From assembly GCA_964468985.1 (NCBI GenBank), contig CAYXXE010000001.1, forward strand, positions 4,581 to 68,580: 64,000 bases of DNA, read 5' to 3'. Shown here piece after piece: positions 2,678 to 34,808 of this stretch. A program made the position numbers and the translations under genes. Below the pieces are notes generated by a model. It was not told the DNA's origin and did not search any database. It saw nothing but the letters and a program-made list of their open reading frames with translations. The DNA comes from an uncultured Gaiellales bacterium. GTDB lineage: Bacteria > Actinomycetota > Thermoleophilia > Gaiellales > Gaiellaceae. Each line of letters begins with the position of its first letter. The first letter of the stretch is position 1.

Positions 2678-2684
2678 CGCCAGC

Positions 2685-3839: not shown

Positions 3840-3850
3840 CGCCGGATCGA

Positions 3851-4498: not shown

Positions 4499-4560
4499 AG
4501 CCGAGAGCGAAGAGATCGGAATTGGTTACGAGGCGCCTTCAGGTGGCGGATAGTACACTC

Positions 4561-4576
4561 TCAATCGAACGTTTGA
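4561..4576. promoter_or_regulatory. operator-like palindrome CAAAC-N4-GTTTG, copy B (TetR/SDR divergent promoter)
   Basis: TCAATC GAAC GTTTGA, one mismatch in the left half-site. It overlaps a second near-palindrome, TGATAGATATCA, at 4574-4585. Confidence 0.55.
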
Positions 4577-4600
4577 TAGATATCAACCGGAGACAATTCC

Positions 4601-5401: not shown

Positions 5402-5416
5402 GGGGACGGTTCGACG

Positions 5417-6922: not shown

Positions 6923-7119
6923 GTTCGCTCATGCATGAAATTGCCCGACTCGTGGTAGCGGTTCACCGTCGGCATGTAACCGGTGAGGCCATTCTCGAGA
7001 ACCATCGTCTCCGTCTCGAGGAATGTCGTAGGCGCCCTCCGCGGCAGCTCGTGAAGTTTGCCCGGAGCGAGCGGGAGAGTCTCCTGGGCCACGTCGCGTC
7101 TGCTCTCCTCTCGGTTCAT
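6907..7119 (-). CDS. hypothetical small protein (70 aa), candidate unannotated ORF coupled to the aldehyde dehydrogenase
   Basis: ATG at 7119, and the stop overlaps the ALDH start by 16 nt. Third-codon positions are mostly G/C like real genes here. It would shrink an atypical 314-nt gap to 117 nt. No clear Shine-Dalgarno and no recognisable family. Confidence 0.3.
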   Translation of the reverse strand: MNREESRRDVAQETLPLAPGKLHELPRRAPTTFLETETMVLENGLTGYMPTVNRYHESGNFMHERTWGRS

Positions 7120-7166
7120 CGGATCTGACGATTGACCACAGACTCTAACGCATCGCAAACCATGCG

Positions 7167-7188
7167 ACAAACAATCGTTTGGTGGTTT
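7167..7188. promoter_or_regulatory. operator-like palindrome CAAAC-N4-GTTTG, copy C (perfect half-sites)
   Basis: ACAAAC AATC GTTTGG followed by TGGTTT. The whole 22-mer is identical to 35510-35531. It lies between the ALDH/small ORF (minus strand) and the SDR (plus strand). Confidence 0.6.
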
Positions 7189-7236
7189 CAGCGAACGTTG
7201 GTACGGTGACTTTCATCATCCGGCAAGGAGGTTCGT

Positions 7237-8028
7237 GTGAACGCGACTGGCGCTTCGACATCAACACGCCGCCTTGACGGCCGCGTCGCGATCGTCGTCG
7301 GGAGTGCGACCGGCATCGGCGCGGCGTCGGCCGCCCGACTCGCCCAAGAGGGCGCCTCGGTCGTCCTCGCCGACCTGAACCTGGAGGAGGCCGAGCGGAC
7401 GGCGGAGCGGATCGTCGCCGAGGGGGGCGACGCCGTCGCACTGCCGGCGGACGTTGGCGACGATGCCTCGATAGAGGCGATGATCGAAGCGACGATCGGT
7501 CGCTTTGGTCGGATCGATGCCGTTCATTCGAACGCCGCCGATACATCGAAGGCGACCTCCGATCGCGATCTGGATGTCGTCTCGATTGACTTAGACGTCT
7601 GGGATCACATCCTTCGCATCAACCTCCGCGGTCACGTGATCGTCCTGCGCCATGCCATTCCCCACATGGTGCGTCAGGGCGGCGGAGCGATCGTCTGCAC
7701 TTCGTCGGACGGCGCACTGCTCGGATTTCCCGTCTGGTCGGCGTACTGCGCCTCGAAGGCGGGTGTCAACGCCCTTGTCCATCACGTCGCAGCACGCTGG
7801 GGCAAGGAGGGGCTCCGCTGCAACGCTGTCTCACCTGGGGTGATCCTGAGCGATGCAGGGCAGGGGCTGTCGGAGGAATTCAGGGAAGCCGCGCTCGCGG
7901 GCAACAACAGCACACGACTCGGGAAGCCCTCGGACATCGCCGCTGCCGTCGCCTACCTCGTCTCCGACGACGGTGCCTGGGTAACCGGCCAGGTGATCTC
8001 TGTCAACGGAGGCGCGCTGCTCCGATGA
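7237..8028 (+). CDS. short-chain dehydrogenase/reductase (SDR)
   Basis: GTG start with AAGGAGG 5 nt upstream. Motifs: GRVAIVVGSATGIGAA, NAADT and YCASKAG. Confidence 0.9.
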   Translation: MNATGASTSTRRLDGRVAIVVGSATGIGAASAARLAQEGASVVLADLNLEEAERTAERIVAEGGDAVALPADVGDDASIEAMIEATIGRFGRIDAVHSNAADTSKATSDRDLDVVSIDLDVWDHILRINLRGHVIVLRHAIPHMVRQGGGAIVCTSSDGALLGFPVWSAYCASKAGVNALVHHVAARWGKEGLRCNAVSPGVILSDAGQGLSEEFREAALAGNNSTRLGKPSDIAAAVAYLVSDDGAWVTGQVISVNGGALLR

Positions 8029-8052
8029 TGCAAGATCGTCATCTTCCCGAAT

Positions 8053-8070
8053 ACCAAACTTCCGTTTGGT
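8053..8070. promoter_or_regulatory. operator-like palindrome, copy D (perfect 7+7), overlapping a -35 element
   Basis: ACCAAAC TTCC GTTTGGT. Its last T starts a perfect TTGACA (8070-8075), and TAGCCT (8094-8099) follows 18 nt later. It is upstream of the Liv-type importer operon. Confidence 0.65.
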
Positions 8071-8163
8071 TGACAAATGGGGATCGAACGGCATAGCCTT
8101 GGCGCCGGCTCTCGCACCGGCGGGCGCTCACGGTGGTATCCCCGAAGATTGGAGGCGTTCGAA

Positions 8164-9378
8164 TTGTCCCCTGTCCTACGAGCTCGATTCGGAAGTTGGC
8201 GTACGCGGGCGGCGATGCTGCTCGTCGGCGGAACGGTCGCGGCGTTGGCGTTCGGTGGAGCGGCGTCGTTCGCGAGCGCGGATACCACGAGCGCCAAGGT
8301 GATCAAGGTTGCCCTGATTGAGGACATCACCGGAGGCTTCTCCGCGATCAGCGGACCGCAGCCCTCGTATGCCTACATCAAGGATCTGAACGCGAATGGT
8401 GGGCTGAACGGCTACAAGGTCGTGACGTCGCTCTACGACGGCCAGTCAACCGATGCCGGCACGCTCCAGGCGGCCCGGCGAGCGGCACAGGTTCATCCAG
8501 CCGCCATCATCATGGGGTCGTGGAACGCGTCGTCGGCGAATGCGTTTCTCGCGACGACGGGCATTCCGGTTGTCGGCTTCGGCGCACTCGGAGGGTATGG
8601 CGGGTACAACAACATCTTCTCAGACATCGGAGAGGCCGCAGCGCACGCGAGTGACGTGTGGACTCGAATCCTGGCGCTCAAGGGAGCCACGAAGGTCGCC
8701 CTGCTCGACACGATCTACGAGGGCAAGTTCGACTCACTCCTGCAGCAGCTCGCTCCGGGTGTGGGTGTCACGATCGTGTACGACAACGCCACCCTTCCCT
8801 ACCCGGTCGATTCGCCGACGGCGCTCTCGCTCGCCCAGGCCGTCAAGGCGAGCGGCGCGACCGGGGTGTATGCGGCAGCCGGCGGCGACATCGTTCAGGC
8901 CGATCTCAACGAGCTCGGCTACAAAGCGACCGTCCTCGAAGTGTCAGCGTTCGGACCTGCTGTGATCAAACAGTGGGGGAGCAAGGTCAACGGCATGAGC
9001 TTCGGGTCGGCCTTCGCCTCGGCGTACGTCAAGAACGCGGCTGTCGCCAAGTATGTCGCGCTCATGAAGAAATACGGCTATTCGAACTACACGTACAACA
9101 ACCCGTACGCGATCGAGCACTACGCGGCCACGAAGATGTTGTTCGACGCAATGAAGGCGGGAGGCGCTCCGTACACTCCGAAGGGAACCGTCGCAGCGCT
9201 GAACAAGCTGCACAAGTACACGGGCGGCGGTCTACTACCGTTCGTCTCGTTCCCGGACTGGCACACGATCAGCAGTGACTGTGCGGCGACCGCCACCGTC
9301 GTCAACGGCCAGTGGGTCGCAGACAAGAACGGCACGGACCCGTTCGTTTGCAGTCTGACGGGCTCGAAGGCGCTGTAG
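8164..9378 (+). CDS. ABC transporter substrate-binding protein, LivJ/type-1 periplasmic-binding-protein family
   Basis: TTG at 8164 with GGAGG 8 nt upstream gives a signal-like N-terminus (LSPVLRARFGSWRTRAAMLLVGGTVAALAFGGAASFASA). ATG at 8215 or 8077 are alternatives. The body resembles branched-chain-amino-acid-type binding proteins. Confidence 0.85.
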   Translation: MSPVLRARFGSWRTRAAMLLVGGTVAALAFGGAASFASADTTSAKVIKVALIEDITGGFSAISGPQPSYAYIKDLNANGGLNGYKVVTSLYDGQSTDAGTLQAARRAAQVHPAAIIMGSWNASSANAFLATTGIPVVGFGALGGYGGYNNIFSDIGEAAAHASDVWTRILALKGATKVALLDTIYEGKFDSLLQQLAPGVGVTIVYDNATLPYPVDSPTALSLAQAVKASGATGVYAAAGGDIVQADLNELGYKATVLEVSAFGPAVIKQWGSKVNGMSFGSAFASAYVKNAAVAKYVALMKKYGYSNYTYNNPYAIEHYAATKMLFDAMKAGGAPYTPKGTVAALNKLHKYTGGGLLPFVSFPDWHTISSDCAATATVVNGQWVADKNGTDPFVCSLTGSKAL

Positions 9379-9397
9379 GAGCAACTCGCAATACCTC

Positions 9398-9450
9398 CGT
9401 CGGCCTTCTCCCATGACATATCCGAATCACGTCATGGGAGAAGGCCGACG
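9398..9450 (+). promoter_or_regulatory. perfect 20-bp stem / 13-nt loop hairpin between the binding-protein and permease genes
   Basis: CGTCGGCCTTCTCCCATGAC (9398-9417) is the exact reverse complement of 9431-9450. No T-tract follows. It starts 20 nt after the binding-protein stop codon. Confidence 0.6.
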
Positions 9451-9506
9451 CTGTCATCTCGACACGCGAACGGCGTTGTTGGGCTTCGTCCGGCCAGAGG
9501 CATGAC

Positions 9507-11432
9507 TTGATCGAATTCATCGATGCCAACGTCGTTTCCGGGCTCGTCGTCGGTTGCATCTATGCAATCGCAGCCTCCGGGCTCGTTGTCGCCTACAACA
9601 CGTCCGGCGTCGTAAACCTGGGCTACGGCGCAATCGCCTACACGATCGCGCTCATCTTCTTCGAGCTTCGAAGCGCGCATCACATCCTGAACGGGTGGGA
9701 AGCGCTCGCCCTGTGCGTCTTCGTGATCGGCCCACTCCTCGGGACGCTCCTCTGGCAGGGGCTCTTCCGATGGCTCGTAGGACTGGGCCTCTTACCGACG
9801 CTCATCGCCTCGATCGGCGTCGCGGTCGCGCTACCGGCTCTTTGTTTGATGGTCTTCGCGCCCGGCCAAGTCTTCTACGCAGCAGGCGTCCCGAACGGAG
9901 GCACCGACCTCCGCCGGATCGGGTCGATCTACTTCACCGTCGACCAGGCGTATGCGGTCGTCGCAGCAGCCGTCGTCGGTGCAGCGCTTGTGTATCTCCT
10001 TCGCTTCACGACGATCGGCCTCAAGATGCGAGCGGTTTGCGACAGCCGCTCGGTCGCCGGCCTCACCGGCACGAGCCCGGGGTTGATCAGCAATCTCAGC
10101 TGGGCGATCAGCGGAGCCCTCGCCGCCATCGGCGGGGTGTTCCTCGCACCGTTGCTCCAGTTGACGTCCTCGTCCTTCTTGACGCTCACCGTCGCAAGCC
10201 TCGCCGCCGCGCTTGTCGGCGGATTGCGGTCCATCGCGATCACATTCGCCGCCGCCTTGGCGATTGGCACTGCGTCAAGCTCGCTCGTCGGGCTTGATTC
10301 AACGAGCATTCTGATCCGGAACGGGATGCAGCCCTCGCTGCCGTTCCTCGTCATGGTCGCGGCCGTTCTCCTTCGCCGCAACCCGATCGACGTCGGCCAG
10401 TTGCCCCGACGGACCGTCGAGCTTGCCGAGCGCTTCGACAAAGCCCCAACCATCCTCATGAAGGTTGGCCCGGCGGCTGTAGCGCTACTCCTGGTTCCGG
10501 CCGTGCTCAACTCCTATTGGGTCGGCGTCGTCGGGCTCGGTCTCATCTACGCGATCATCTTCCTCGGGTTCACGCTCGCACTCGGGTACGGCGGGCTCCT
10601 CCCGCTCGGCCAGGCGGCGATCGTGGGCATCGCAGCGTTCGCCGGCGCCGACATCGCCGCGTCGACAGGCCTGGCGCTGCTGCTCGCAATCCTTGTCGGG
10701 GGGCTCATCGCGACCGGGATCTCGGTCGCTCTCGCAGTCGTCGGGGGGCGCCTGAGCGCGCTCGAGTTCGGATTGCTGACGATCGCGTTTGGTCTGTTCA
10801 CCGATAACTTCCTCTACAACTGGACGGCACTCGTGCCACTCGGCGGCCGAGCAATCGGGTCGCCGTCGCTGTTCGGCTTCGATCTCGCGAGCCCGAGTCG
10901 CCAGTACTACCTCTTCGCCACCGCGCTTGGCCTCGTACTGGCGGGTGTCAGCTGGTACCGACGCCGAATCGGTGCGTTCTTCATCGGCGCGGGGCGGATG
11001 AAGCCGACGCTCGCGGCGGCGACGGGCGTCGATCCACGAGTCGGGCGAATCGTTGCTTTTGCCCTCGCCGGGTTCGCAGCCGGTCTCGGCGGGGGTCTCC
11101 TCGGCATCTATCAGAAGTTCATCACTGCGACAGACCTGACGACGGCCACCGGCCTCACATGGCTCGCCGTCGTCGTCTTCATGGGCATCCGATCGCCCGC
11201 CGCAGCGGTCGTTGCGGGCCTCATCTATGCCGTGTTCCCGGCGCTCCTTTCCGAGTGGCTGCCGATCAAGTGGGGGCCGCTGGCAACCGTGATGTTCGGA
11301 CTCGGCGCGCTGTCACTCGCCCAGAATCCGCGCGGCGCCGTCGCCGCCCAGATCGACCAAGCACGCGCCGTCGCCAGGAAGGTGCGGCCGCTCCTCGCCC
11401 GCGTGACACCTGAACAGAGCGATCGAGCATGA
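9507..11432 (+). CDS. fused LivH-LivM type ABC permease (both membrane subunits in one 641-aa polypeptide)
   Basis: The N-terminal half (VVSGLVVGCIYAIAASGLVVAYNTSGVVNLGYGA) is LivH-like. The C-terminal half (LIYAIIFLGFTLALGYGGLLPLGQAAIVGIAAF) is LivM-like. TTG start. Confidence 0.85.
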   Translation: MIEFIDANVVSGLVVGCIYAIAASGLVVAYNTSGVVNLGYGAIAYTIALIFFELRSAHHILNGWEALALCVFVIGPLLGTLLWQGLFRWLVGLGLLPTLIASIGVAVALPALCLMVFAPGQVFYAAGVPNGGTDLRRIGSIYFTVDQAYAVVAAAVVGAALVYLLRFTTIGLKMRAVCDSRSVAGLTGTSPGLISNLSWAISGALAAIGGVFLAPLLQLTSSSFLTLTVASLAAALVGGLRSIAITFAAALAIGTASSSLVGLDSTSILIRNGMQPSLPFLVMVAAVLLRRNPIDVGQLPRRTVELAERFDKAPTILMKVGPAAVALLLVPAVLNSYWVGVVGLGLIYAIIFLGFTLALGYGGLLPLGQAAIVGIAAFAGADIAASTGLALLLAILVGGLIATGISVALAVVGGRLSALEFGLLTIAFGLFTDNFLYNWTALVPLGGRAIGSPSLFGFDLASPSRQYYLFATALGLVLAGVSWYRRRIGAFFIGAGRMKPTLAAATGVDPRVGRIVAFALAGFAAGLGGGLLGIYQKFITATDLTTATGLTWLAVVVFMGIRSPAAAVVAGLIYAVFPALLSEWLPIKWGPLATVMFGLGALSLAQNPRGAVAAQIDQARAVARKVRPLLARVTPEQSDRA

Positions 11433-18019: not shown

Positions 18020-18933
18020 CCGGCGGGAATCTTGCAGGGAAGGTGCTGATCGTGACCGGGGCCGGACGCGGCATCGGGAGGGAAATCGCCCTCCTCGCGG
18101 CCGCCGAGGGCGCAGGAGTCGTGGTCAACGATCTAGGGGGCGGTGCAGAAGGCAGTGGCAGCGATCCGGGCCCTGCGCACGCGGTCGTCGAGGAGATTCG
18201 CTCGGCCGGCGGCGATGCCGTCGCGAACGCCGAAAGCGTCGCATCGGAGGACGGAGCCCGGGGCATCGTCCAGGCGGCGATCGACGAGTTCGGGCAGGTT
18301 GATGTCGTTGTCAACAACGCCGGGATCCTTCGCGACAAGATCTTCCACCAGATGGCGAGCGACGATTTCGAAAAAGTCGTGCGCGTCCATCTCCACGGAA
18401 GCTTTTACATGGCTAACGCAGTGGCACCACTTTTTCGCAGCCAGGAGCGAGGCGCATTCGTCCACTTCACTTCCACATCGGGCTTGATCGGAAACCTCGG
18501 CCAAGCCAACTACGCGGCCGCCAAGCTCGGCATCGTCGGGCTCTCGAGATCGATCGCGCTCGACATGGCCCGATTCGGTGTTCGCTCCAATTGCATCGCA
18601 CCGTTCGCCTGGAGCCGCCTGATCGGCACGATCCCGACCGGCTCCGGGCAGGAGGAGGCACGCGTTGAGAAGTTCAAACGAATGGGTGCGGAGAAGATCG
18701 CTCCACTTGCGGTCTTTCTCGGCTCCGATCGGAGTGCGGAGATCACAGGGCAGATCTTCGGTGTCCGCATGAACGAGATCTTTCTGTTCAGCCAACCGCG
18801 GCCGATCCGTTCGATCCACCACTCGGACGGGTGGTCGGTCGATGCATTGGCCGAGCGACTCGCGCCTGCATTCCGAACCTCGTTCACACCGCTGGAGCGG
18901 TCCGCGGACGTCTTCAGCTGGGACCCGGTGTGA
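18016..18933 (+). CDS. long SDR of the MFE-2 / Hsd4A type ((3R)-hydroxyacyl-CoA dehydrogenase-like)
   Basis: ATGA overlap. GKVLIVTGAGRGIGREIALLAAAEGAGVVVNDLGG...VVNNAGILRDKIF...VHLHGSF...YAAAKLG matches the peroxisomal MFE-2 dehydrogenase-domain pattern. 305 aa. Confidence 0.85.
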   Translation: MTGGNLAGKVLIVTGAGRGIGREIALLAAAEGAGVVVNDLGGGAEGSGSDPGPAHAVVEEIRSAGGDAVANAESVASEDGARGIVQAAIDEFGQVDVVVNNAGILRDKIFHQMASDDFEKVVRVHLHGSFYMANAVAPLFRSQERGAFVHFTSTSGLIGNLGQANYAAAKLGIVGLSRSIALDMARFGVRSNCIAPFAWSRLIGTIPTGSGQEEARVEKFKRMGAEKIAPLAVFLGSDRSAEITGQIFGVRMNEIFLFSQPRPIRSIHHSDGWSVDALAERLAPAFRTSFTPLERSADVFSWDPV

Positions 18934-19787
18934 ACCGCGAAGCGCTGCTGCACTGGCCATTCGATGAGCTCGAGCAGTCGTATTCCGCGACCGACGCGAT
19001 CTTGTACGCGCTTGGCCTCGGGATCGGGGCGGACCCAACGGACCCGAACCAGTTGCGGTTCGTTTACGAGGAGGGGCTCGCAGCGCTACCGACCATGGCA
19101 GTCATCTTCGGTTACCCAGGCCTCTACCTTCGGGAACCAGCCGCCGACGTGAACTGGCAGCAGATGCTTCACGGCGAGCAGAGCCTCGTCTTGCACCGCC
19201 CGCTGCAGCCCGCCGGTCGCATCGTCAGCGTCAACCGAGTCGATGACGTCATCGACAAGGGCGCGGGCCGGGGCGCTCTGGTCTACGCGACCAGAGAGCA
19301 ACGGGATGCCGGCACTGGTGAGCTCATCGCCACATTGACATCAACGGCCTTCTGCCGCGCTGATGGCGGCTTCGGGGGGCCTTCCGGCCCGGTGAAGCCG
19401 GCGCATCCAGTGCCGACGGCAGAGCCGAGCTTGTCGCTTTCGACGTCGACGCTCCCGCAGGCCGCCTTGATCTATCGCTTGAGCGGAGACTTCAACCCGA
19501 TCCACGCCGACCCGCGGATCGCAGCTGAGGGAGGGTTCAGCCGGCCCGTTCTGCACGGCCTCTGCACCTTCGGGATCGCGGGGTACGCGTTGCTCGGCGC
19601 ACTCTGTCGCTACGAGCCAGAGCGTCTGCGAAGGCTGGAGGCCCGGTTTTCAGCGCCTGTCTATCCCGGTGACACGATCACAACCTCGATCTGGCAGGAG
19701 GCAGATGGTCGGGCGGCATATCGCTGCAGCGTCGCCGCGCGCGGCGTCGTCGTGATCGACAATGGCTACGTGGAGTTCGACGAGTGA
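18930..19787 (+). CDS. MaoC-like double-hotdog (R)-specific enoyl-CoA hydratase (hydratase-2 / Hsd4B-like)
   Basis: GTGA overlap, 285 aa. YRLSGDFNPIHADPRIAAEGGFSRPVLHGLCTFG is the MaoC dehydratase motif, in the C-terminal hotdog. Confidence 0.85.
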   Translation: MNREALLHWPFDELEQSYSATDAILYALGLGIGADPTDPNQLRFVYEEGLAALPTMAVIFGYPGLYLREPAADVNWQQMLHGEQSLVLHRPLQPAGRIVSVNRVDDVIDKGAGRGALVYATREQRDAGTGELIATLTSTAFCRADGGFGGPSGPVKPAHPVPTAEPSLSLSTSTLPQAALIYRLSGDFNPIHADPRIAAEGGFSRPVLHGLCTFGIAGYALLGALCRYEPERLRRLEARFSAPVYPGDTITTSIWQEADGRAAYRCSVAARGVVVIDNGYVEFDE

Positions 19788-22447: not shown

Positions 22448-23575
22448 ATGGGCCCGCTCGAGGGTATCCGCGTCGTCGAGATGGGTGGGATTGGGCCGGT
22501 CCCTTTCGCGGCGATGGTGCTCGCGGGTCTCGGTGCTGACGTTGTTCGAGTCGAGCGTCCGGGGGCGGCCCCCGTAGTTGCCTCGGAGTCTCGATACAAC
22601 GTCGCGCTCCGCGACCGGACGGCGATTGTGCTCGACCTGAAGACGCCACTTGCGGTTGAGGCGGTTCTTCGGCTTGCCGCGCACTCCGACGCGTTCCTTG
22701 AAGGGTGGCGGCCCGGGGTGGCAGAACGTCTCGGCATCGGGCCGTCGGCCTGCGCCGAGCGTAACCCGCGACTGGTCTACGGGAGGATGACGGGCTGGGG
22801 CCAGGACGGCCCGCTGAGTGGCACGGCTGGACACGACATCAACTACATCGCGTTGACAGGCGTTCTCGATGCGATCGGACGGGTTGGTGAGCGACCTGTC
22901 CCTCCGCTCAACCTTGTTGGCGACTTCGGCGGCGGCGGCATGCTCCTCGCGCTCGGTGTTCTCGCGGGGATTCTCGAGGCCCGGACTTCGGGCGTCGGAC
23001 AGGTGATCGACGCCGCGATGGTCGATGGTGCGGCCCAGCTCGCCGCGGGGTTCTACGGCTACGTGGCCGACGGCACTTGGAGTCTCCAGCGTGGGACGAA
23101 TCTCCTCGACTCGGGCGCTCCGTTCTATGACGTCTACGAGACGTCGGATGGCCGTCACATGGCCGTCGGTGCAATCGAGTCTCGCTTCTACGCCGAGCTC
23201 CTTCGCGGCCTCGGAATCGATGGTGACTCGCTTCCACACCAGCTAGACCGAGCTGCGTGGCCGGAACTCAGGCGGGTCTTCAGCGAAGCGTTCCGAACCC
23301 GGTCTCGCGCCGAATGGGCCGAGGTGTTCGCGAACAGGGATGCCTGTGTCACGCCGGTCCTTTCATTCGGGGAAGCGCCACGGCATGAGCACAGTCGCTT
23401 CAGGGATAGCTATGTCGAGGTGGACGGCATCCGCCAGCCTGCGCCCGCGCCACGCTTCTCGCGCACTCCGGCGAGCACGACTCGACCTCCACGGGCCGCC
23501 GGTGCGGACACCCCGGAGATCCTCAACAAGCTCGGCTTCGACGAGCAGGATATCCGGCGTCTGCGAGTCAACTGA
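22448..23575 (+). CDS. mcr: alpha-methylacyl-CoA racemase-like family III CoA-transferase
   Basis: The ATG at 22448 is 2 nt after the thiolase stop. MGPLEGIRVVEMGGIGPVPFAAMVLAGLGADVVRVERP closely resembles my recollection of the M. tuberculosis Mcr N-terminus. GHDINYIALTG is also present. 375 aa. Confidence 0.8.
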   Translation: MGPLEGIRVVEMGGIGPVPFAAMVLAGLGADVVRVERPGAAPVVASESRYNVALRDRTAIVLDLKTPLAVEAVLRLAAHSDAFLEGWRPGVAERLGIGPSACAERNPRLVYGRMTGWGQDGPLSGTAGHDINYIALTGVLDAIGRVGERPVPPLNLVGDFGGGGMLLALGVLAGILEARTSGVGQVIDAAMVDGAAQLAAGFYGYVADGTWSLQRGTNLLDSGAPFYDVYETSDGRHMAVGAIESRFYAELLRGLGIDGDSLPHQLDRAAWPELRRVFSEAFRTRSRAEWAEVFANRDACVTPVLSFGEAPRHEHSRFRDSYVEVDGIRQPAPAPRFSRTPASTTRPPRAAGADTPEILNKLGFDEQDIRRLRVN

Positions 23576-25199
23576 CCGTCTCAACGGCGATCGAGCCGTG
23601 GTCGATCCCGGCCACGAGCTCGTGCTTCCTGATCTTTCCTGTCGAGGTCATCGGCAGCGCGTCGATTCGCGCCAGGGCCTGGGGCAGCTTGAACGTCGCG
23701 ACTCCCTGCGCACGCAGTCCAGCAGTGACGTCGTCAAGGCTGAGAGTCGCGGTCCCATGCAGCACGACGCACGCGCAGACGATCTCTCCAAGTCGCGCGT
23801 GAGGCAGACCGACGACGGCTACGCCAGCCACGCCGGGAAGCTCAACGATCATCTCTTCGAGCTCACGCGGCGCGATGTTGATCCCGCCCCGGATGATGAT
23901 CTCCTTCTTCCGGCCGACGATCGTCAGGTAGCCGTCGTCATCGATCACTCCGATGTCGCCCGTCCTGACCCAGCCGTCGGGGTCGAAACTCGCCGTTGTG
24001 CGCTCGGGATCAGCGAAGAATCCGACACACGCATTTGGGCTGCGCCCGAATATCTCGCCTGGCACGTTGCATGCCGGCTCGCCGTCGTCGCCTCGAACCT
24101 CGATCTCGACGCCGTCCAGGGCTCGACCATCCGTCCAGATCTGCTTCTCGAGCGGACTCTCCGGGCGGTTCCAGGTGGCGCAGAGCAACTCGGTCGAGCC
24201 GTAAAGCCGCAAGACCTGAATGCCGGTCGCGCGCGCTGCCTCGACGAGCGGCGGGGGCACGGGCGCGCCACCTGATCCGAAATGGCGCAGTGACGAAGCA
24301 TCGACGTCATTCCGCGATGCGTACTCCACGATGTCGGCCAGGAACGTGGTCGCTGCCAGCGTGTACGAGCAACGAAAGCGGCTGACCAATCGCACCGCCT
24401 CGTCGGCACTCCAGCGATCCTGCAAGACGAGCGGAAGGCCGTAATAGACGGCGGGGCGAACGCCGTAGTTGAGGCCCGTCGAATGACCGATCGGTGACGG
24501 CATCCAGACGATCTCATCGTCGCCGAGCCCGAGGGAACTCCAAAGCGACCGCACTCCGTGGTTCGTCGTTTGCTCGGTGTGCATGATCGCCTTCGGCGCC
24601 GCCTCCGTCCCCGACGTGAAGATCAGTTCAGAGACGGCAGCAGCGTCGCGCTCTGCGACGTCAGGTCCATCCTCGAAAGACTCGATCCAATCGGCGAAGG
24701 CGCCGGGCGCGTCGAGCGGCCCCGGCACCTCGACCGCGTCGAGAAGCGTTGGAACATGCGGACGCAGCGATTCGATCATCGCCGAGAAGTCATGGTCGCG
24801 ATAGACGGTCGGTGTGAAGATCAGCTTCGAACCGCTCGCCGAGAGCATGTGTCGCAACTCTCGGTCGCGGTAGAGCGGAAGCAGCGGGTTGAGCACCGCT
24901 CCGACACTGAGCACGGCAAGGTCTACAGCAACCGTCTCATACCAGTTCGGAAGCTGGACGGAGACCACGTCACCCGCGGCGATGCCACGGCTGCGCAGGT
25001 GGCCAGCGAGTCGCCGCACGTCGGCGGCGAGCTGGTGCCAAGTCACGATCCGGTCTCCGCCGCAGTCGATCACGGCTGCGGCACCCGGCCGCTCTTTAGC
25101 GTGGCGTCGCAGGCGGCCGGGCAAGGTCGAACCGTCCCAGGCGCCCGAACGCTCGTAGGCGGCTCGACGTTCGCTCGAGGTGACGACGTCCGTGAGCAT
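23568..25199 (-). CDS. AMP-forming acyl-CoA synthetase/ligase
   Basis: 543 aa. Motifs: LIFTSGTEAAPKAIMH (AMP-binding motif), WVRTGDIG, GRKKEIIIRGGINI, TSTGKIRK. Confidence 0.9.
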   Translation of the reverse strand: MLTDVVTSSERRAAYERSGAWDGSTLPGRLRRHAKERPGAAAVIDCGGDRIVTWHQLAADVRRLAGHLRSRGIAAGDVVSVQLPNWYETVAVDLAVLSVGAVLNPLLPLYRDRELRHMLSASGSKLIFTPTVYRDHDFSAMIESLRPHVPTLLDAVEVPGPLDAPGAFADWIESFEDGPDVAERDAAAVSELIFTSGTEAAPKAIMHTEQTTNHGVRSLWSSLGLGDDEIVWMPSPIGHSTGLNYGVRPAVYYGLPLVLQDRWSADEAVRLVSRFRCSYTLAATTFLADIVEYASRNDVDASSLRHFGSGGAPVPPPLVEAARATGIQVLRLYGSTELLCATWNRPESPLEKQIWTDGRALDGVEIEVRGDDGEPACNVPGEIFGRSPNACVGFFADPERTTASFDPDGWVRTGDIGVIDDDGYLTIVGRKKEIIIRGGINIAPRELEEMIVELPGVAGVAVVGLPHARLGEIVCACVVLHGTATLSLDDVTAGLRAQGVATFKLPQALARIDALPMTSTGKIRKHELVAGIDHGSIAVETVS

Positions 25200-26254
25200 C
25201 AGACTCGTAGCTCCTCTGGAAGCGGCACTGACTGGAAACCGTCCTCGAGGATCTGCATTCCGTCCACGAGCAAGCCGTGGATGGTGTTCAGCAGGCTTTC
25301 ATAGATCGGGTCGACTCGCCTTCCGGCGCGATGAAGATGAAGGTTGTAGCCGAGAATCGCCGCGTACTTCAGACAGCCGAGCGCGGTATACCAGTTGATC
25401 TCGTCCTCGGTCGCTGCTGCGAACGCAGCGATCTCACCGGGAGAGATACCAAGGTTGCCAGAGGGGTTCGGGTCCGGTGCGTAGCGTGCGCGCAAAGCAG
25501 TTACCGTCAGGGACGCGACATCCATGAGCGGCTGGCCGATCTCTGCGATTTCCCAGTCGACGACCGCGACGACGGCGCCCTCCGCGAACAGGAGGTTCGC
25601 GTAGTGGTAGTCACCGTGAACGAGGGTCGGCTGGCAAGCCCGCATCGTCCGGGCGCGCAGGTGCCTGCTCAGAGCTCGGCCCGGCCCATGCTCGTCCTCT
25701 GGCGCTCGTTCAAGGAGTTGTGACCAGCGGTCGATCTCCGCGATCGGCTCGATCGGCGACTCCGAGCCGATCCCCGTTGCGGGAACTGGGATTGCCTGCA
25801 GGGCGGCCAGCGCTTCGGCAGCCGCACGCGCAACGGTCGCACCACCGTGCTCCGCGACTGCCTCGGGCCACTCGAGTCCGTCGACCCGCTCCATCAGGAC
25901 GAACGAGCGGCCGTCGATCGCCGGCTCCGACGAGAAGGCGAGCACACGCGGAACAACGAACCCGGCCGCGTGCAGCGCCGACATGATCCGCCCCTGCCGG
26001 CCAATGTCGGCCGGTCCGGCGATCCGGGCGGCGGGAGGCGAGAGCCGGAGGACCAGCGACTCAGATCCGGTCTCGACGGAGTAGGTGAACCCGGAGTGGC
26101 CAGAGCCGAACGGCGCGACCTCCTCGACGCGGACCTTCTGCCCCGCAACCCGCCGGAGGACCGAGCCGATGTCCTGCCGGATGCGATCGAGCTGGCTGTC
26201 GTCGGAGCTGTCGATGGTGTCCTGAAGTCTAATCCGAACTTTCGCTATTATCAA
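25199..26254 (-). CDS. APH-fold phosphotransferase (acyl-CoA-dehydrogenase-associated kinase type)
   Basis: Only the C-terminal 351 codons of the 702-aa ORF look like protein. Motifs: FGSGHSGFTYSV, TLVHGDYHYANLLF (HxDxxxxN), VVDWEIAEIG. I prefer the TTG at 26254; ATG 26296 and GTG 26293 are alternatives. Its stop shares one base with the ligase ATG (TGATG). Confidence 0.8.
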   Translation of the reverse strand: MIIAKVRIRLQDTIDSSDDSQLDRIRQDIGSVLRRVAGQKVRVEEVAPFGSGHSGFTYSVETGSESLVLRLSPPAARIAGPADIGRQGRIMSALHAAGFVVPRVLAFSSEPAIDGRSFVLMERVDGLEWPEAVAEHGGATVARAAAEALAALQAIPVPATGIGSESPIEPIAEIDRWSQLLERAPEDEHGPGRALSRHLRARTMRACQPTLVHGDYHYANLLFAEGAVVAVVDWEIAEIGQPLMDVASLTVTALRARYAPDPNPSGNLGISPGEIAAFAAATEDEINWYTALGCLKYAAILGYNLHLHRAGRRVDPIYESLLNTIHGLLVDGMQILEDGFQSVPLPEELRV

Positions 26255-26266
26255 ACAATCGGTTGG
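26251..26266. promoter_or_regulatory. operator-like palindrome CAAAC-N4-GTTTG, copy F
   Basis: TCAAAC AATC GGTTGG is preceded by TATTAT. The same TATTATCAAAC string recurs at copy G. It sits in the kinase/thioesterase divergent region and overlaps the candidate kinase start. Confidence 0.5.
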
Positions 26267-26281
26267 CAGAAAGCAGGAGAA

Positions 26282-26674
26282 ATCGGAGCGCACCATACAA
26301 CCCCTTCCCGCGTCTCGTGGCACGACACGGATGCGAGTGGTCGAATCCACTTCACGGCGGCGTTTCGCTGGGCCGAGGCTGCCGAGGCGGGGTTGATGCG
26401 CGCGGCCGGAGTGGATCCCTCGACGTCGATCGACTATCCACGCCGGAAAGTGGAAGCCGAGTACCTGATTCCATTGCGTTTCGACGACGCCGTCGAGACG
26501 AAGATCACGGTCGATCGGATCGGCCGGACGTCGCTCACGCTCGCCTGGGATGTCACCTCCCGCGGGCGCGTCGCCATCCGGGGCTTGCACACGATCGTTC
26601 GAGTCGATGGCGCCGGCCGGCCGAAGGAGCTGGATGCAGAGATCGGAATCGCGCTTGGGGGCGCTGGGAGGTAA
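26282..26674 (+). CDS. 4HBT/YbgC-type hotdog acyl-CoA thioesterase, start codon unresolved
   Basis: RVSWHDTDASGRIHFTAAFRWAEAAE...YLIPLRFDDAVE...VDRIGRTSLTLAWDV is a hotdog thioesterase pattern. No ATG/GTG/TTG lies just upstream, so the coordinate given is the ATC at 26282. See the finding at 26096-26674. Confidence 0.55.
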   Translation: MGAHHTTPSRVSWHDTDASGRIHFTAAFRWAEAAEAGLMRAAGVDPSTSIDYPRRKVEAEYLIPLRFDDAVETKITVDRIGRTSLTLAWDVTSRGRVAIRGLHTIVRVDGAGRPKELDAEIGIALGGAGR

Positions 26675-26683
26675 GGGGAGGGG

Positions 26684-27907
26684 ATGCCCGAAGCCGTTGT
26701 CGTTTCCGCCGTGCGCACGCCGATTGGCCGCGCCCGCAAGGGGTCGCTCGCTGGGATGCGGCCCGATGACCTCGCCGTCGCGGCGATCGAGGCAGCGCTT
26801 GCTCGAGTGCCCACGCTCGACCGGGACTCGATCGAGGATCTTCTGCTCGGCTGCGCAGAGCCTCACGACGAGCATGGCGCAAATCTCGCCCGCCGCGTCG
26901 CCGTGCAGCTCGGCCTCGACGGGCTGCCGGGAACGACGGTCAATCGCTTCTGCGCGTCGAGCGTCCAGACGACACGGATGGCGTTTCATGCGATCAAGAG
27001 TGGTGAAGGGGACGTCTTTGTCAGCGCGGGCGTCGAGTGTGTCTCGCGATACGACCCCGAGTTGGGCATGGGGACGGGCAAGGTGGGCTCGGCACATCCC
27101 GCGTTCGCGGCCGCGCAGGCGCGAAGTGCCAGGATGGCTGAAACGGGGGACGTTTGGGTCGACCCGCGTACGCGCGGCCTGCTCCCGGACGTGTTCATCG
27201 CGATGGGCCAAACGGCCGAGAATGTGGCGAGCCTGAGGGGCGTCAGTCGCGAGGACCAGGATGCGTTCGCGGTGTTGAGTCAGAACCGCGCCGAAGCTGC
27301 GATTCACGATGGGTTCTTCGACCGCGAGATTGTTCCTGTCAAGACGCCCGACGGCGTGATCGTCGCCCGGGATGATGGACCGCGTAGCGGCACCACGATC
27401 GAACAGGTCGCAGAGTTGCAGCCCGTCTTCCGAGCAGCCGGCACCGTGACAGCCGGAAACTGCTGTTCCCTGAACGACGGCGCGGCTGCGCTTGTCGTCA
27501 TGAGCGATGTCAGGGCGAATGAGCTCGACTGCCGCCCGCTCGCACGGATCGTTGCGACAGGCGTCTCGGCGCTCTCACCGGAGATCATGGGACTCGGCCC
27601 GGTCGCCGCCTCGCAGCAGGCGCTGGCCAGGGCCGGGATGACGATCGATGACATCGACTTGGTGGAGATCAACGAGGCGTTCGCCGCCCAGGTTCTCCCT
27701 TCAGCCGAGGATCTCGGTGTTGACGTCGACAAGCTCAATGTGCACGGCGGTGCAATCGCGCTCGGTCATCCGTTCGGGATGAGCGGTGCCCGTATCACCG
27801 CGACGCTTCTGAATGGGCTGCAGACGCTCGACAAGCAGTTTGGACTGGAGACGATGTGCATCGGTGGCGGTCAGGGAATGGCGATCATCTTCGAGCGGCT
27901 GAGATGA
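26684..27907 (+). CDS. acetyl-CoA C-acyltransferase (classical thiolase, FadA-like)
   Basis: Motifs: MPEAVVVSAVRTPIGRARKGSL, VNRFCASSVQT (Cys nucleophile), NEAFAAQ, NVHGGAIALGHPFGMSGAR, CIGGGQGMA. Confidence 0.92.
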   Translation: MPEAVVVSAVRTPIGRARKGSLAGMRPDDLAVAAIEAALARVPTLDRDSIEDLLLGCAEPHDEHGANLARRVAVQLGLDGLPGTTVNRFCASSVQTTRMAFHAIKSGEGDVFVSAGVECVSRYDPELGMGTGKVGSAHPAFAAAQARSARMAETGDVWVDPRTRGLLPDVFIAMGQTAENVASLRGVSREDQDAFAVLSQNRAEAAIHDGFFDREIVPVKTPDGVIVARDDGPRSGTTIEQVAELQPVFRAAGTVTAGNCCSLNDGAAALVVMSDVRANELDCRPLARIVATGVSALSPEIMGLGPVAASQQALARAGMTIDDIDLVEINEAFAAQVLPSAEDLGVDVDKLNVHGGAIALGHPFGMSGARITATLLNGLQTLDKQFGLETMCIGGGQGMAIIFERLR

Positions 27908-29115
27908 GCGCGGTCGCAGAGCGCAAGGAACGGGTGCGCACGTTCATGCAGGAACACATCTTCCCGAACGAGCGTCTGCTCCTGGACGAGGACACGGCAT
28001 CCGACCGGCTCATCCGCGACCTCCAGCAGCGTGCGAAGGATGCGGGCCTCTGGGCTCCGCATTTGCCTCCGGAGGCCGGCGGGTCGGGTGGGGGGTTTCT
28101 CGAGTACGCCCATTTGAACGAGGAGATCGGCCGCAGCGTGGTAGCGCAGCTCGTCTTCGGCTGCCAGGCGCCCGATGCCGGAAACGGCGAATTGCTCCAC
28201 CTATTCGGCACGCAGGAACAGCGCTCGCGCTTCCTCGATCCGCTCGTCGCCGGCGAGATCCGCTCGTTCTTCGGGATGACCGAACCCGACGCTGCCGGCT
28301 CTGACCCGACACTTCTGCAAGGCCACGCCGAACGGGTAGGCGACGAATGGGTGATCAACGCCCACAAGTGGTTCTCTACGGGCGCCGACGGCGCTGCGTT
28401 CGGCATCCTGATGGTGGTCACCGACCCGGACGCGGAGCCGCACAGGCGAGCGTCGCTCATCATCGTTCCCACCGACGTCGCGGGCTACGAACTCGTTCGG
28501 CGTGTCCCGGTCATGGGTCATGAGGGCCGAGGTTGGGGAACCCACTGCGAGACGCGCTTCACCGACGTCCGCGTACCGTTCGCGAACACGCTCGGCGACC
28601 CCGGAGACGGCTTCCGGCTCGCGCAAAAGCGGCTCGGGCCGGGCCGGATCCACCACGTCATGCGCTGGTTGGGTCAGATGCAGCGTGCGTTCGAGCTGAT
28701 GTGCTCGTACGCTCTCGAACGAGAGGCATTCGGCAGCCGACTCTCCGAGAAGCAGACCATCCAGAACTGGATCGCCGAATCCGCCGCGGAGATCCATGCC
28801 TGCCGCTTGATGACGCTCGCAACAGCACGCCGACTCGATGAGGGCGACGAGGCCCGTGTCGAGATATCGCTGATCAAGTTCGCCGCGGCCCGCGTTCTCG
28901 TCGACGTCATCGATCGCGCGATCCAGGTGCACGGTGGGCTCGGCCTCACCGAGGACACCCCGCTGGCACTGATGTGGCGGACGGCACGCGGTGGCCGCAT
29001 CTACGACGGAGCTGACGAGGTCCATAAGCTCGTGGTTGCCCGGCGGATACTGCGCTCGTTCGAAGAGGGCGGCGCAGAGCTCTTCCAACGAGAGGTGGCA
29101 CCTTGGCGGACCTGA
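27904..29115 (+). CDS. acyl-CoA dehydrogenase, ACAD10/11-FadE2-like N-terminus
   Basis: ATGA overlap. Motifs: MSAVAERKERVRTFMQEHIFPNERLL, FGMTEPDAAGSDP, WFSTGA, IQVHGGLGLTEDTPLA. 403 aa. Confidence 0.88.
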   Translation: MSAVAERKERVRTFMQEHIFPNERLLLDEDTASDRLIRDLQQRAKDAGLWAPHLPPEAGGSGGGFLEYAHLNEEIGRSVVAQLVFGCQAPDAGNGELLHLFGTQEQRSRFLDPLVAGEIRSFFGMTEPDAAGSDPTLLQGHAERVGDEWVINAHKWFSTGADGAAFGILMVVTDPDAEPHRRASLIIVPTDVAGYELVRRVPVMGHEGRGWGTHCETRFTDVRVPFANTLGDPGDGFRLAQKRLGPGRIHHVMRWLGQMQRAFELMCSYALEREAFGSRLSEKQTIQNWIAESAAEIHACRLMTLATARRLDEGDEARVEISLIKFAAARVLVDVIDRAIQVHGGLGLTEDTPLALMWRTARGGRIYDGADEVHKLVVARRILRSFEEGGAELFQREVAPWRT

Positions 29116-30038
29116 GCGGAAAGGTCGCGATCGTCACCGGGGCAGGACGCGGCATCGGCCGCTCACACGCGCTTGCCCTCGCCGAGGCAGGCGCACGGCT
29201 CGTCGTCAACGATCTCGGGGTGGAGCTGTCCGGTGATGGTGCGGACATCACGCCGGCCGAGCAGGTCGCAGCACAGATTCGTGCAGCCGGCGGCGAGGCC
29301 ATCACCGACGGCGAAGACGTAGCGGATTTCACAGGCGCCGCACGGCTCGTACGTCGCGCAATTGACTCCTACGGTGACCTCGACATCGTCGTCAACAACG
29401 CAGGCATCCTCCGCGATCGCATGCTCGTGAACATGACCGAGCCCGAGTGGGACGCCGTCATGGCGGTCCACCTCAAGGGCCATTTCGCGGTTACCCGACA
29501 CGCCGCCGACTACTGGCGCCAGCGCGCAAAGGCGGGCGACGACGTGCGGGGACGCGTGATCAACACGTCGAGCCCGTCCGGGGTCTTCGGCAACGTCGGC
29601 CAGGCGAACTACGGTGCCGCAAAGGCCGGGATCGCGGCGTTTACCGTCATCACGGCGCTTGAGCTGGCGCGCTACGGGATCACGGTGAACTGCCTCGCGC
29701 CGAACGCGCGAACCCGGATGACCGAGGAGACGTTCGACGTTGCGGCGCCCGACGGGGATTGGGATCCGTTCGACCCGGCGAACACCTCCGTCGTCGTCGT
29801 CGCGCTGTGCGCGGACGCCGCCCAGGAGATCACGGGCCAGGTCTTCCACGTCTGGGGAGGAGCAGTGAACGCTCTCCAAGGGTGGGCTCCGGGCGAGCTC
29901 TTCGACGCTCCGGGCGGCTGGCAGGCGCCGGCGTTGCTCGCGGCGATGTTGGAGCGGTTTCCGGCCGGCGTCGCGCCAAGCGGACTAATGGCAGGCATCG
30001 AGGCTGCGGGCGGACGGGCCTTCGGAAAGGCGAGTTAG
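29103..30038 (+). CDS. long SDR of the MFE-2 / Hsd4A type (paralogue of 18016-18933)
   Basis: The TTG start overlaps the ACAD stop by 13 nt. Pattern: GKVAIVTGAGRGIGRSHALALAEAGARLVVNDLG...VVNNAGILRDRML...VHLKGHF...YGAAKAG. Confidence 0.85.
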   Translation: MADLSGKVAIVTGAGRGIGRSHALALAEAGARLVVNDLGVELSGDGADITPAEQVAAQIRAAGGEAITDGEDVADFTGAARLVRRAIDSYGDLDIVVNNAGILRDRMLVNMTEPEWDAVMAVHLKGHFAVTRHAADYWRQRAKAGDDVRGRVINTSSPSGVFGNVGQANYGAAKAGIAAFTVITALELARYGITVNCLAPNARTRMTEETFDVAAPDGDWDPFDPANTSVVVVALCADAAQEITGQVFHVWGGAVNALQGWAPGELFDAPGGWQAPALLAAMLERFPAGVAPSGLMAGIEAAGGRAFGKAS

Positions 30039-33618: not shown

Positions 33619-33736
33619 GCCGTCTCCTCCGTCCCATGCGCCGTCGAGCCGTAGCCGACTCCGACCCGGTTCTGAGAGGACGAGGCTGGGGCTCGATGCT
33701 TTGCCGGACGAACGATCATCATTCGCTCCTGATATT

Positions 33737-33754
33737 ATCAAACGACCATTTGAT
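33737..33754. promoter_or_regulatory. operator-like palindrome CAAAC-N4-GTTTG, copy G
   Basis: ATCAAAC GACC ATTTGAT is preceded by TATTAT. It lies in the divergent region between the crotonase operon and the LLM oxidoreductase. Confidence 0.55.
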
Positions 33755-33809
33755 TGCTAAGTCTGATTTTCAACTTAGCGTCGACGTTTCAGTCCTGCGG
33801 GAGCATCGC

Positions 33810-34808
33810 ATGCAGATCGGCTTTTCAATGGGACATGCGCAAGCGGGGACGAGTCCGCGTGATCTGATCGACCTTGCCTGCGAGGCGGACCGGCTCGGCT
33901 TCCACTCGGCGTGGACGGCGGAGGCCTGGGGTACTGATGCGGTGACGCCACTCGCCTGGCTTGGGGCGCTCACCGAGCGCATCCGACTGGGAACTGCGGT
34001 TATGCAGATCCCGGCGCGCACGCCCGCCAACGCGGCGATGACCGCTGCGACCCTCGATCTGCTCTCCGGCGGGCGATTCATCCTCGGCCTCGGCAACTCC
34101 GGCCCGCAAGTGGTTGAGGGCTGGCACGGCCAAGAGTGGGGCAAGCCGCTCGAAAAGCTCAGGGAGTACGTAGCGATCGTCCGGGCGGCGATTCGCAGCG
34201 AGCGCCTCGAGCACCACGGCACTCACTTCGACATTCCGCTCACGGGTGGAACCGGTCTCGGGAAGCCACTGCAGTTGATGGTCCGGCCGGTCAGAGCAGA
34301 CCTTCCGATCTATCTCGCGGCGATCTCGCCGAGGGCGGTCGAGCTCGCGTTTGAAATCGGTGACGGCTGGCTGCCGATCTTCTGGTCGCCCGAGCGAGCG
34401 CACGAGGTATTTCCGCTCGACCGACGCCGCCCCGGATTCGAGATCGCACCGTCCGTGCGGGTTGCGCTCGGGGACAACATCGCGGCGCAGCGCGAATCGC
34501 TCAAGGAGTACTTCGCGTTCTACATCGGTGGAATGGGCGCCAAGTCGCAGAACTTCTACAACGACCTCGCCGTTCGGTACGGGTACGAGGCGGCAGCGCG
34601 GACGATCCAAGATCTCTTCCTGGAGGGAAAGCGAGACCAGGCGGCTGCGGCGGTACCGGACACGCTCGTCGATGAGTTCGCCCTCGTCGGGCCGCGAGAA
34701 AGGATTCGTGACCGATTGTCGGCCTGGCGTGAGTCGGGCGTCACAACGCTGCTCGTCGCGACCCGAGACTCCGAAACCTTGCGCGCTGTAGCCGAGATCG
34801 GCCTCTGA
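33810..34808 (+). CDS. luciferase-like monooxygenase (LLM) class, probably F420-dependent oxidoreductase
   Basis: ATG at 33810 gives MQIGFSMGH. LGFHSAWTAEAWGTDAVTPLAWLGALTERIRLGTAVMQIPARTP and GRFILGLGNSGPQVVEGWHG are the LLM pattern. 332 aa. Confidence 0.85.
   Translation: MQIGFSMGHAQAGTSPRDLIDLACEADRLGFHSAWTAEAWGTDAVTPLAWLGALTERIRLGTAVMQIPARTPANAAMTAATLDLLSGGRFILGLGNSGPQVVEGWHGQEWGKPLEKLREYVAIVRAAIRSERLEHHGTHFDIPLTGGTGLGKPLQLMVRPVRADLPIYLAAISPRAVELAFEIGDGWLPIFWSPERAHEVFPLDRRRPGFEIAPSVRVALGDNIAAQRESLKEYFAFYIGGMGAKSQNFYNDLAVRYGYEAAARTIQDLFLEGKRDQAAAAVPDTLVDEFALVGPRERIRDRLSAWRESGVTTLLVATRDSETLRAVAEIGL

Follow-up and report, generated by a model that had tools for sequence, protein, structure and literature searches.

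Breakdown of 4-hydroxy acids by a kinase and a phosphate eliminase is a recently described route, known from the lva operon (2017) and from ACAD10/11 (2024-2025), and its bacterial spread and substrate range are largely untested. In Pseudomonas putida KT2440, the lva operon encodes the kinase LvaA, LvaB, the eliminase LvaC, which is of the acyl-coenzyme A (acyl-CoA) dehydrogenase (ACAD) type, the short-chain dehydrogenase/reductase (SDR) LvaD and the ligase LvaE (PMC12440821, PMC11342911). A split kinase/ACAD pair from Burkholderia pseudomallei replaces the ACAD10 domains in vitro (PMC11342911). Here we describe a related locus at positions 23568-30038 of a 64,000-nucleotide stretch of DNA from an uncultured Gaiellales bacterium (contig CAYXXE010000001.1; the whole stretch is referred to as the window), in which a kinase (K1) and an ACAD (A1) are encoded on opposite sides of a divergent promoter, together with a ligase, a thioesterase frame, a thiolase and an SDR. 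The chemistry and both protein families are already known from P. putida lva, the B. pseudomallei pair and mammalian ACAD10/11. Distinctive here are a kinase lineage with Gln at position 61 and Glu at position 147 (Q61/E147), its coexistence with a canonical pair in a small genome, the divergent operator-controlled operons, and the built-in MFE-2-type dehydrogenase and thiolase. The cluster is probably a by-pass that takes 4-hydroxy acids into β-oxidation by phosphorylation followed by phosphate elimination.

A1 (27904-29115, plus strand) is a putative 4-phosphoacyl-CoA phosphate eliminase as judged by its matches in the PDB and its signature motifs. The best match is mouse ACAD11 (8v3u, 1.5e-86, 294 bits), followed by the ACAD domain of human ACAD11 (2wbi, 281 bits) and the mycobacterial 4hr3 (272 bits). 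Among all PDB sequences the best conventional ACAD scores 174 bits, leaving ACAD11 ahead by about 120 bits. In ACAD11, D753 has a catalytic role and R631 a general one, and R626, H634 and R637 (the 'HCMR' region) hold the 4-phosphate; mutation abolishes turnover (PMC12440821). All five of these residues (R626, R631, H634, R637 and D753) are retained when A1 is aligned to the mouse enzyme. The A1 pocket reads RLGPGRIHHVMR, with the pattern R-x4-R-x2-H-V-M-R, and the sole change in the motif is Cys to Val (HVMR for HCMR). The segment YDGADEVH of A1 aligns with ADGPDEVH of ACAD11, with Asp replacing the usual catalytic Glu, and the chain of the D-to-N mutant (8v3v) differs at exactly this column. 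By description, a catalytic Asp and a basic H-x-M-R pocket are common to LvaC and A1. When the whole assembly was scanned in six frames, both ACAD10/11 signatures came up together in only two frames, A1 and a paralogue on contig C25 that is 68% identical to it. Judged from these residues and scores, membership of A1 in the ACAD10/11/LvaC type is well supported.

The strongest evidence that K1 and A1 may act together comes from comparative genomics. Loci of the K1 family were collected from one genome per species, giving 80 loci, and an ACAD sharing 40% or more of its residues with A1 was counted as a neighbour when it lay within 10 kb. Such an A1-type ACAD is present in 67 of the 80 loci, and 64 of the 67 carry both signature motifs. 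The ACAD lies directly downstream of the kinase on the same strand in 60 of the 80 loci, with a gap of 36-116 nucleotides (nt), and the downstream ACADs carry RLGPGRIHHCMR and DG[PAV]DEVH. This order, kinase then ACAD, is the order of the domains in the ACAD10/11 fusion, and the linkage spans several phyla. No fusion of a K1-type kinase with an ACAD was found in the 150 best-scoring sequences out of 1.84 billion representatives, none of which is longer than 459 amino acids. In the window the two proteins are likewise encoded by separate genes, unlike ACAD10/11, and these lie 1.65 kb apart on opposite strands across the common promoter.

Individual loci repeat parts or all of this organization. 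In two loci from Solirubrobacteraceae the gene orders are kinase-ACAD-SDR-ligase (L010) and ligase-kinase-ACAD (L038), and in a locus from Gaiellaceae (L014) the kinase is divergent from an operon of thiolase, SDR and ACAD. Two metagenomic loci, L006 and L007, repeat the whole arrangement of the window, with a downstream ACAD, SDR, A1-type ACAD and thiolase on one side and kinase, ligase and family-III CoA-transferase on the other. Their kinases are 57-58% identical to K1, the thiolases 79-80% identical to that of the window, and most of the other proteins 70-80%. The kinase tree places K1 with these two loci (support 100) inside a 15-member Actinomycetota clade (support 98). The most constant neighbour in this clade is the ligase: of the 14 other loci, 12 have a homologue of it (49-76% identity) no further than 10 kb from the kinase.

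The sequences establish to which fold and family every protein belongs, that catalytic and pocket residues are conserved, how the genes are coupled, and that the linkage of kinase and ACAD is kept across genomes; every catalytic step and the substrate of the by-pass are inferred. The ligase would convert the 4-hydroxy acid to a 4-hydroxyacyl-CoA, and K1 would phosphorylate the 4-hydroxyl with adenosine triphosphate (ATP). A1 would then eliminate the phosphate in a redox-neutral reaction that depends on flavin adenine dinucleotide, yielding a 2-enoyl-CoA. Hydration of the latter would be carried out by an (R)-specific hydratase of the neighbouring operon, after which oxidation of the hydrated product by the SDR and cleavage by the thiolase would complete the turn. 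A TetR-type repressor would hold both operons via a shared operator until an acyl-CoA-like ligand appears.

K1 (25199 to about 26254, minus strand) is an APH-fold kinase (Pfam APH, 8.6e-32). Its start is uncertain, and the conserved core begins near 26176, the position from which its residues are numbered here. A family profile built from 28 relatives was run against solved structures and matched 9o56 (2e-30), 3dxp (5e-30) and ACAD11 (4e-29), and then Rv3168 (7e-11) and a 25-hydroxysteroid kinase (5e-10). A gap of about 19 orders of magnitude thus separates the ACAD11-type kinases from the next match. The AlphaFold2 model of K1 has a predicted local distance difference test score (pLDDT) of 93, and Foldseek returned 3dxp as its best match, with a template modelling (TM) score of 0.75, and the 25-hydroxysteroid kinase 9fsg as the second (TM 0.70). 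Relatives of K1 at 45-59% identity occur in metagenomes, Rhodococcus, Nocardioides, Streptomyces, 'Chloroflexi' and Dormibacterota. The possibility that K1 is an antibiotic kinase was ruled out, as such kinases match the profile only distantly, at 1e-7 or worse. A prediction made earlier from the sequence of this locus (the original prediction) had proposed a kinase of the lva or ACAD10/11 type beside an ACAD of the ACAD10/11-FadE2 clade. The placement of the ACAD is borne out by the scores of 294 against 174 bits and by the retained residues. For the kinase, the family profile, the motifs and the ACAD linkage uphold the proposal as to type; K1 belongs to a divergent lineage and is not a canonical orthologue.

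The divergence includes the active site. K1 retains the HGD..N and DWE motifs of catalysis unbroken, and H187, D189, N194, D207, W208 and E209 do not vary within the family. The canonical αC glutamate is missing: K1 and its whole family carry R-Q at this place (GRQGRIM), with an invariant Gln (Q61). An alignment was made of 113 full-length proteins, drawn from the best 150 of the 1.84 billion representatives, plus both kinases of this genome (115 rows). In it, columns 61 and 147 co-vary: Q61 is paired with Glu or Asp at 147 in 75 of the 115 rows and E61 with Q147 in 26, and mixed states are very few. Compared with the ACAD11 kinase, K1 thus has Gln for the αC Glu and Glu for the Gln at 147. 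This pattern suggests that the αC carboxylate has moved to position 147, a swap rather than a loss. A dead kinase, considered because of the missing αC Glu, was ruled out by the invariant Gln, the covarying Glu147 and the intact catalytic-loop residues. The Arg beside the αC position (R86 in ACAD11, a CoA contact predicted from modelling) is invariant in the family as R60. The natural E/Q swap offers a probe for the working of this kinase family, and the novelty of the kinase would be lower if LvaA itself belongs to the Q/E class.

The same genome, a 77%-complete metagenome-assembled genome of 265 contigs, contains a second, canonical pair. It is located on contig C25, where the paralogue of A1 (6233-7474, minus strand) and a canonical kinase (8443-9507, minus strand) flank a luciferase-like monooxygenase on the other strand. 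The C25 kinase matches 9o56, 3dxp and ACAD11 over its full length at 2e-55 to 2e-40. Around this pair (2500-10200 of the extracted locus, L001) are also a histidine-phosphatase-family gene, a ligase, an SDR and a zinc-type alcohol dehydrogenase. The Burkholderia-type kinase is nearer to the C25 kinase (33% identity, 1.7e-40) than to K1 (27% over 219 residues, 3e-15). Like the B. pseudomallei pair, K1 and A1 form a split bacterial pair, and A1 has 47% identity to the ACAD of a relative from Burkholderia cenocepacia. The ACAD tree places A1 with the genome's second ACAD, on C25, and with ACADs that stand beside canonical-type kinases, apart from the K1-linked ACADs. The kinase and ACAD trees therefore disagree, which points to an exchange of partners. 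This in turn suggests that either kinase type can partner an A1-type ACAD and that the two types are interchangeable in function.

Since a canonical pair is present elsewhere in the genome, the K1/A1 module probably serves as a second system with another substrate. Such a substrate may perhaps be a longer or methyl-branched 4-hydroxyacyl-CoA, because branched-chain and sterol-side-chain-like genes surround the module. A broader proposal, advanced tentatively and at somewhat less than even likelihood, is that K1 represents a second lineage of 4-hydroxyacyl-CoA kinases in which the carboxylate has moved to 147 (Q61/E147 against E61/Q147). Eliminases of the ACAD10/11 type would have this lineage as their standard operon partner in soil bacteria of the Dormibacterota type and in some Actinomycetota. 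In this genome it would work beside the canonical pair on a substrate of its own, perhaps 4-hydroxyacyl-CoAs that are branched or derived from sterols. An eliminase could be served by a kinase lineage far removed from the canonical one and with a swapped active-site carboxylate, and the presence of both kinds of pair in a single small genome suggests that they are specialised for different substrates. Many members of abundant, uncultured soil phyla carry the two-gene operon, which supplies candidate enzymes for the breakdown of lactone-derived, peroxidation-derived and branched 4-hydroxy acids. Should the predicted activities fail, the ACAD10/11-type signature would predict function less well than is currently supposed.

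Several observations weigh against the by-pass, most of them bearing on the kinase. The role of the K1 lineage as 4-hydroxyacyl-CoA kinases is a prediction from sequence. When K1 is searched as a single sequence, its matches to the ACAD11 kinase (1e-16) and 9o56 (2e-18) are confined to the N-lobe and the catalytic loops, and it is only 23% identical to the canonical kinase of C25. The column aligned to ACAD11 R176, a CoA contact predicted by modelling only, is not conserved; an invariant Arg of the family (R150) lies three residues after this column. Among 24 genomes of the same genus, K1 was detected at E<=1e-20 in one, weakly, and was not found in the other 23. The 60 loci with a directly downstream ACAD belong mostly to one Dormibacterota-type lineage and so represent few independent events, and in the Actinomycetota clade of K1 an ACAD is found within 10 kb in only six of the 15 loci. 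The start codons pose a further difficulty. The canonical starts available to K1 are limited to TTG at 26254, GTG at 26293 and ATG at 26296, all of which overlap the operator or lie upstream of it, and the thioesterase frame has no ATG, GTG or TTG near the start of its domain. At the position of the GTG start used by the closest relatives of K1, about 75 nt further in, the window reads GTC.

The alternative that fares best, though still unlikely, is that the substrate of K1 is a lipid alcohol instead of a CoA ester, such as a 1-O-alkyl- or acylglycerol or a hydroxylated sterol or isoprenoid side chain, and that A1 is served by the canonical kinase or has another role. According to a preprint, 1-O-alkylglycerols are substrates of the ACAD10/11 kinase domains and of several homologues from prokaryotes, and acetyl-CoA stimulates their phosphorylation (10.1101/2025.09.10.675409). 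These prokaryotic enzymes belong to the same superfamily as K1 and have the DWE motif, and the nearest structures named there, 3dxp and 3ats, are also near K1. The preprint deals with the canonical type and with ether-lipid salvage, whereas K1 has a CoA ligase coupled to it and an ACAD of the eliminase type as its linked partner. The second fold match of the K1 model, the 25-hydroxysteroid kinase of Sterolibacterium denitrificans, points in the same direction, as it acts on a free steroid alcohol before a phosphate-eliminating lyase (PMC8449060). This enzyme shares with K1 the APH fold and the logic of an ATP-activated dehydration, in which an alcohol is first phosphorylated and the phosphate then lost; its substrate is no CoA ester, and in the profile comparison it is about 20 orders of magnitude more distant than the ACAD11-type kinases. 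A lipid alcohol would also suit the abundance of sterol-side-chain-like genes in the cluster (Ltp-type thiolases, DUF35/ChsH2-like proteins, MaoC and family-III CoA-transferases) and the nine of 15 Actinomycetota-clade loci in which the ACAD is missing from the 10 kb around the kinase. Nevertheless, the coupling of K1 to the ligase in the window, and the presence of the ligase near the kinase in nearly all other loci of the clade, argue for a CoA-activated substrate, and the tight kinase-then-ACAD operon of the 60 loci is hard to explain without a common intermediate.

Five Actinomycetota loci of the K1 family, L008 (Rhodococcus sp.), L061 (Streptomyces sp.), L013, L018 and L056, have a homologous ligase nearby and no ACAD10/11-type ACAD within 10 kb. 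In the Streptomyces genome an ACAD of this type lies about 16 kb off on the same contig, and in an Acidimicrobiales genome the distance to the nearest one is about 190 kb.

Among the remaining enzymes of the module, the SDR points to a role in β-oxidation rather than in reduction of a 4-oxo acid. The SDR (29103-30038, plus strand) scores 382.6 bits against the NCBIfam model PRK07791 (cut-off 373). In the PDB it is matched best by 2et6 (2e-94), the (3R)-hydroxyacyl-CoA dehydrogenase from yeast MFE-2, and the rat and human HSD17B4 proteins follow at about 1e-51; it is thus a probable (3R)-hydroxyacyl-CoA dehydrogenase. The thiolase (26684-27907, plus strand, 407 amino acids; Thiolase_N and Thiolase_C) is of the degradative type, with 692 bits against PRK07851 (cut-off 580). 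An MFE-2-type SDR would, together with the thiolase, complete a β-oxidation turn rather than reduce a 4-oxo group. The ligase (23568-25199, minus strand, 543 amino acids; Pfam AMP-binding and AMP-binding_C) is an AMP-forming acyl-CoA ligase, and its nearest NCBIfam models, those of medium-chain (FadK-type) and cyclohexanecarboxylate ligases, are both below cut-off. No (R)-specific hydratase is encoded in the module itself. A gene for a MaoC/MFE-2 hydratase-2 protein (18831-19787, plus strand; Pfam MaoC_dehydratas and MFE-2_hydrat-2_N) is located in the adjoining operator-controlled cluster and is a candidate for supplying the (R)-specific hydration. The original prediction was correct in describing a long, MFE-2-type SDR and a built-in thiolase and thioesterase, as the NCBIfam and PDB matches confirm. 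It had also proposed that 4-hydroxy or 4-oxo acids are fed into β-oxidation; the 4-hydroxy core of this proposal is supported, and the 4-oxo branch (levulinate, with an LvaD-like SDR) is not, given the relationship of the SDR to (3R)-hydroxyacyl-CoA dehydrogenases.

A strict lva pathway for levulinate or other 4-oxo acids, in which an LvaD-like SDR reduces the 4-oxoacyl-CoA ahead of the kinase step, is for the same reason quite improbable. Such a pathway is described in the literature (PMC12440821, PMC11342911), the functions of lvaA, lvaC, lvaD and lvaE are co-located in the window as in P. putida, with the kinase again a separate protein, and the order kinase-ACAD-SDR-ligase recurs in L010. 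Yet the best solved relatives of the SDR are the MFE-2 dehydrogenases, and its gene is joined to those of a degradative thiolase and an ACAD, an arrangement that fits β-oxidation. Compared with LvaD as described, this SDR is not evidently a 4-oxo reductase. Further differences from lva are the two divergent operons and the thiolase and thioesterase frame built into the module. There also appears to be no room in the module for a small LvaB-like gene, and the gaps between kinase and ACAD in the other genomes measure only 36-116 nt. Regulation differs as well: the lva operon has its own dedicated activator, LvaR, whereas the window operons share a TetR-type palindrome with a broad acyl-CoA cluster.

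Ordinary β-oxidation, with A1 a conventional FadE2-type α,β-dehydrogenase and the kinase an unrelated resistance or small-molecule kinase, would agree with the generic labels given by family models ('acyl-CoA dehydrogenase', 'phosphotransferase') and with the many ordinary β-oxidation genes around the locus, but it is very improbable in view of the Asp for the catalytic Glu and three basic pocket residues that conventional ACADs lack, the inactivity of ACAD10/11 on C6-C22 acyl-CoAs (PMC12440821), the kinase-ACAD linkage across phyla and the remoteness of antibiotic kinases.

The gene arrangement at 23568-30038 is compact. Six closely packed frames were confirmed, all with G+C contents at third codon positions (GC3) of 0.77-0.82, in a window of 64-69% G+C. 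The frames overlap or abut, so that no unassigned coding space is left within the interval. On the minus strand, the kinase stop and the ligase ATG have one base in common (TGATG, 25197-25201). On the plus strand, the thiolase/ACAD junction is ATGA at 27904-27907, and the ACAD and SDR frames overlap by 13 nt. The coupling of kinase stop and ligase start and the two divergent operons of the original prediction are thereby confirmed, and the motifs that it quoted (HGDYHYANLLF, VVDWEIAEIG and FMQEHIFPNE) are present in the translations. Its 'operator copy F' corresponds to the palindrome CAAAC-N4-GnTTG at 26252-26265 (no strand), in the divergent promoter between the two operons. At both outer borders the genes end convergently without room for terminators, the ligase overlapping a CoA-transferase by 8 nt (23568-23575) and the SDR overlapping the downstream ACAD by 4 nt (30035-30038).

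A search of the promoter for inverted repeats with a 6-nt seed returned nothing; the arms of the palindrome are 5 nt long, and it was recovered by a pattern search. This search located operator copies in the window at 720, 4562, 7168, 8055, 13613, 26252, 33738 and 35511. Eight of the ten near-perfect copies in the 2.62-Mb assembly sit on this 72-kb contig, which is above the chance expectation. The operator is kept at the same position in L006 and L007 despite their diverged flanks, and a sequence resembling a -10 box, TAGACT, is kept downstream of it in the window and in both of these loci. The shared palindrome is probably bound by a TetR-family regulator. A gene of this family (3851-4498, minus strand; TetR_N and TetR_C_24) adjoins the operator copy at 4562 and diverges from an SDR gene, which makes it a candidate for the repressor of the eight-operator acyl-CoA gene cluster.

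The hotdog thioesterase frame (about 26282-26674, plus strand) is of the 4HBT/YbgC-like type, with matches to Pfam 4HBT_2 and 4HBT and a YbgC-type NCBIfam match below cut-off. Its GC3 of 0.77 is like that of its neighbours, and the DTD catalytic region is present. A thioesterase is absent from L006, L007 and all 80 loci of the K1 family. The frame resembles an insertion into the divergent promoter that is particular to this lineage. It would be either a dead gene or one with an unusual start, and in the latter case its product may be an editing enzyme.

The cluster around the module also contains further ACADs, crotonases, two family-III CoA-transferases, Ltp-type thiolases with DUF35 partners, MaoC, an aldehyde dehydrogenase and a luciferase-like monooxygenase. 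The gene set is typical for branched-chain or sterol-side-chain-like substrates. Luciferase-like flavin monooxygenases occur near kinases of the K1 superfamily in four unrelated loci, at 33636-34808 in the window, 7233-8453 in L001, 1789-2868 in L008 and 1920-3017 in L090. These enzymes might produce a hydroxy acid or lactone that feeds the pathway.

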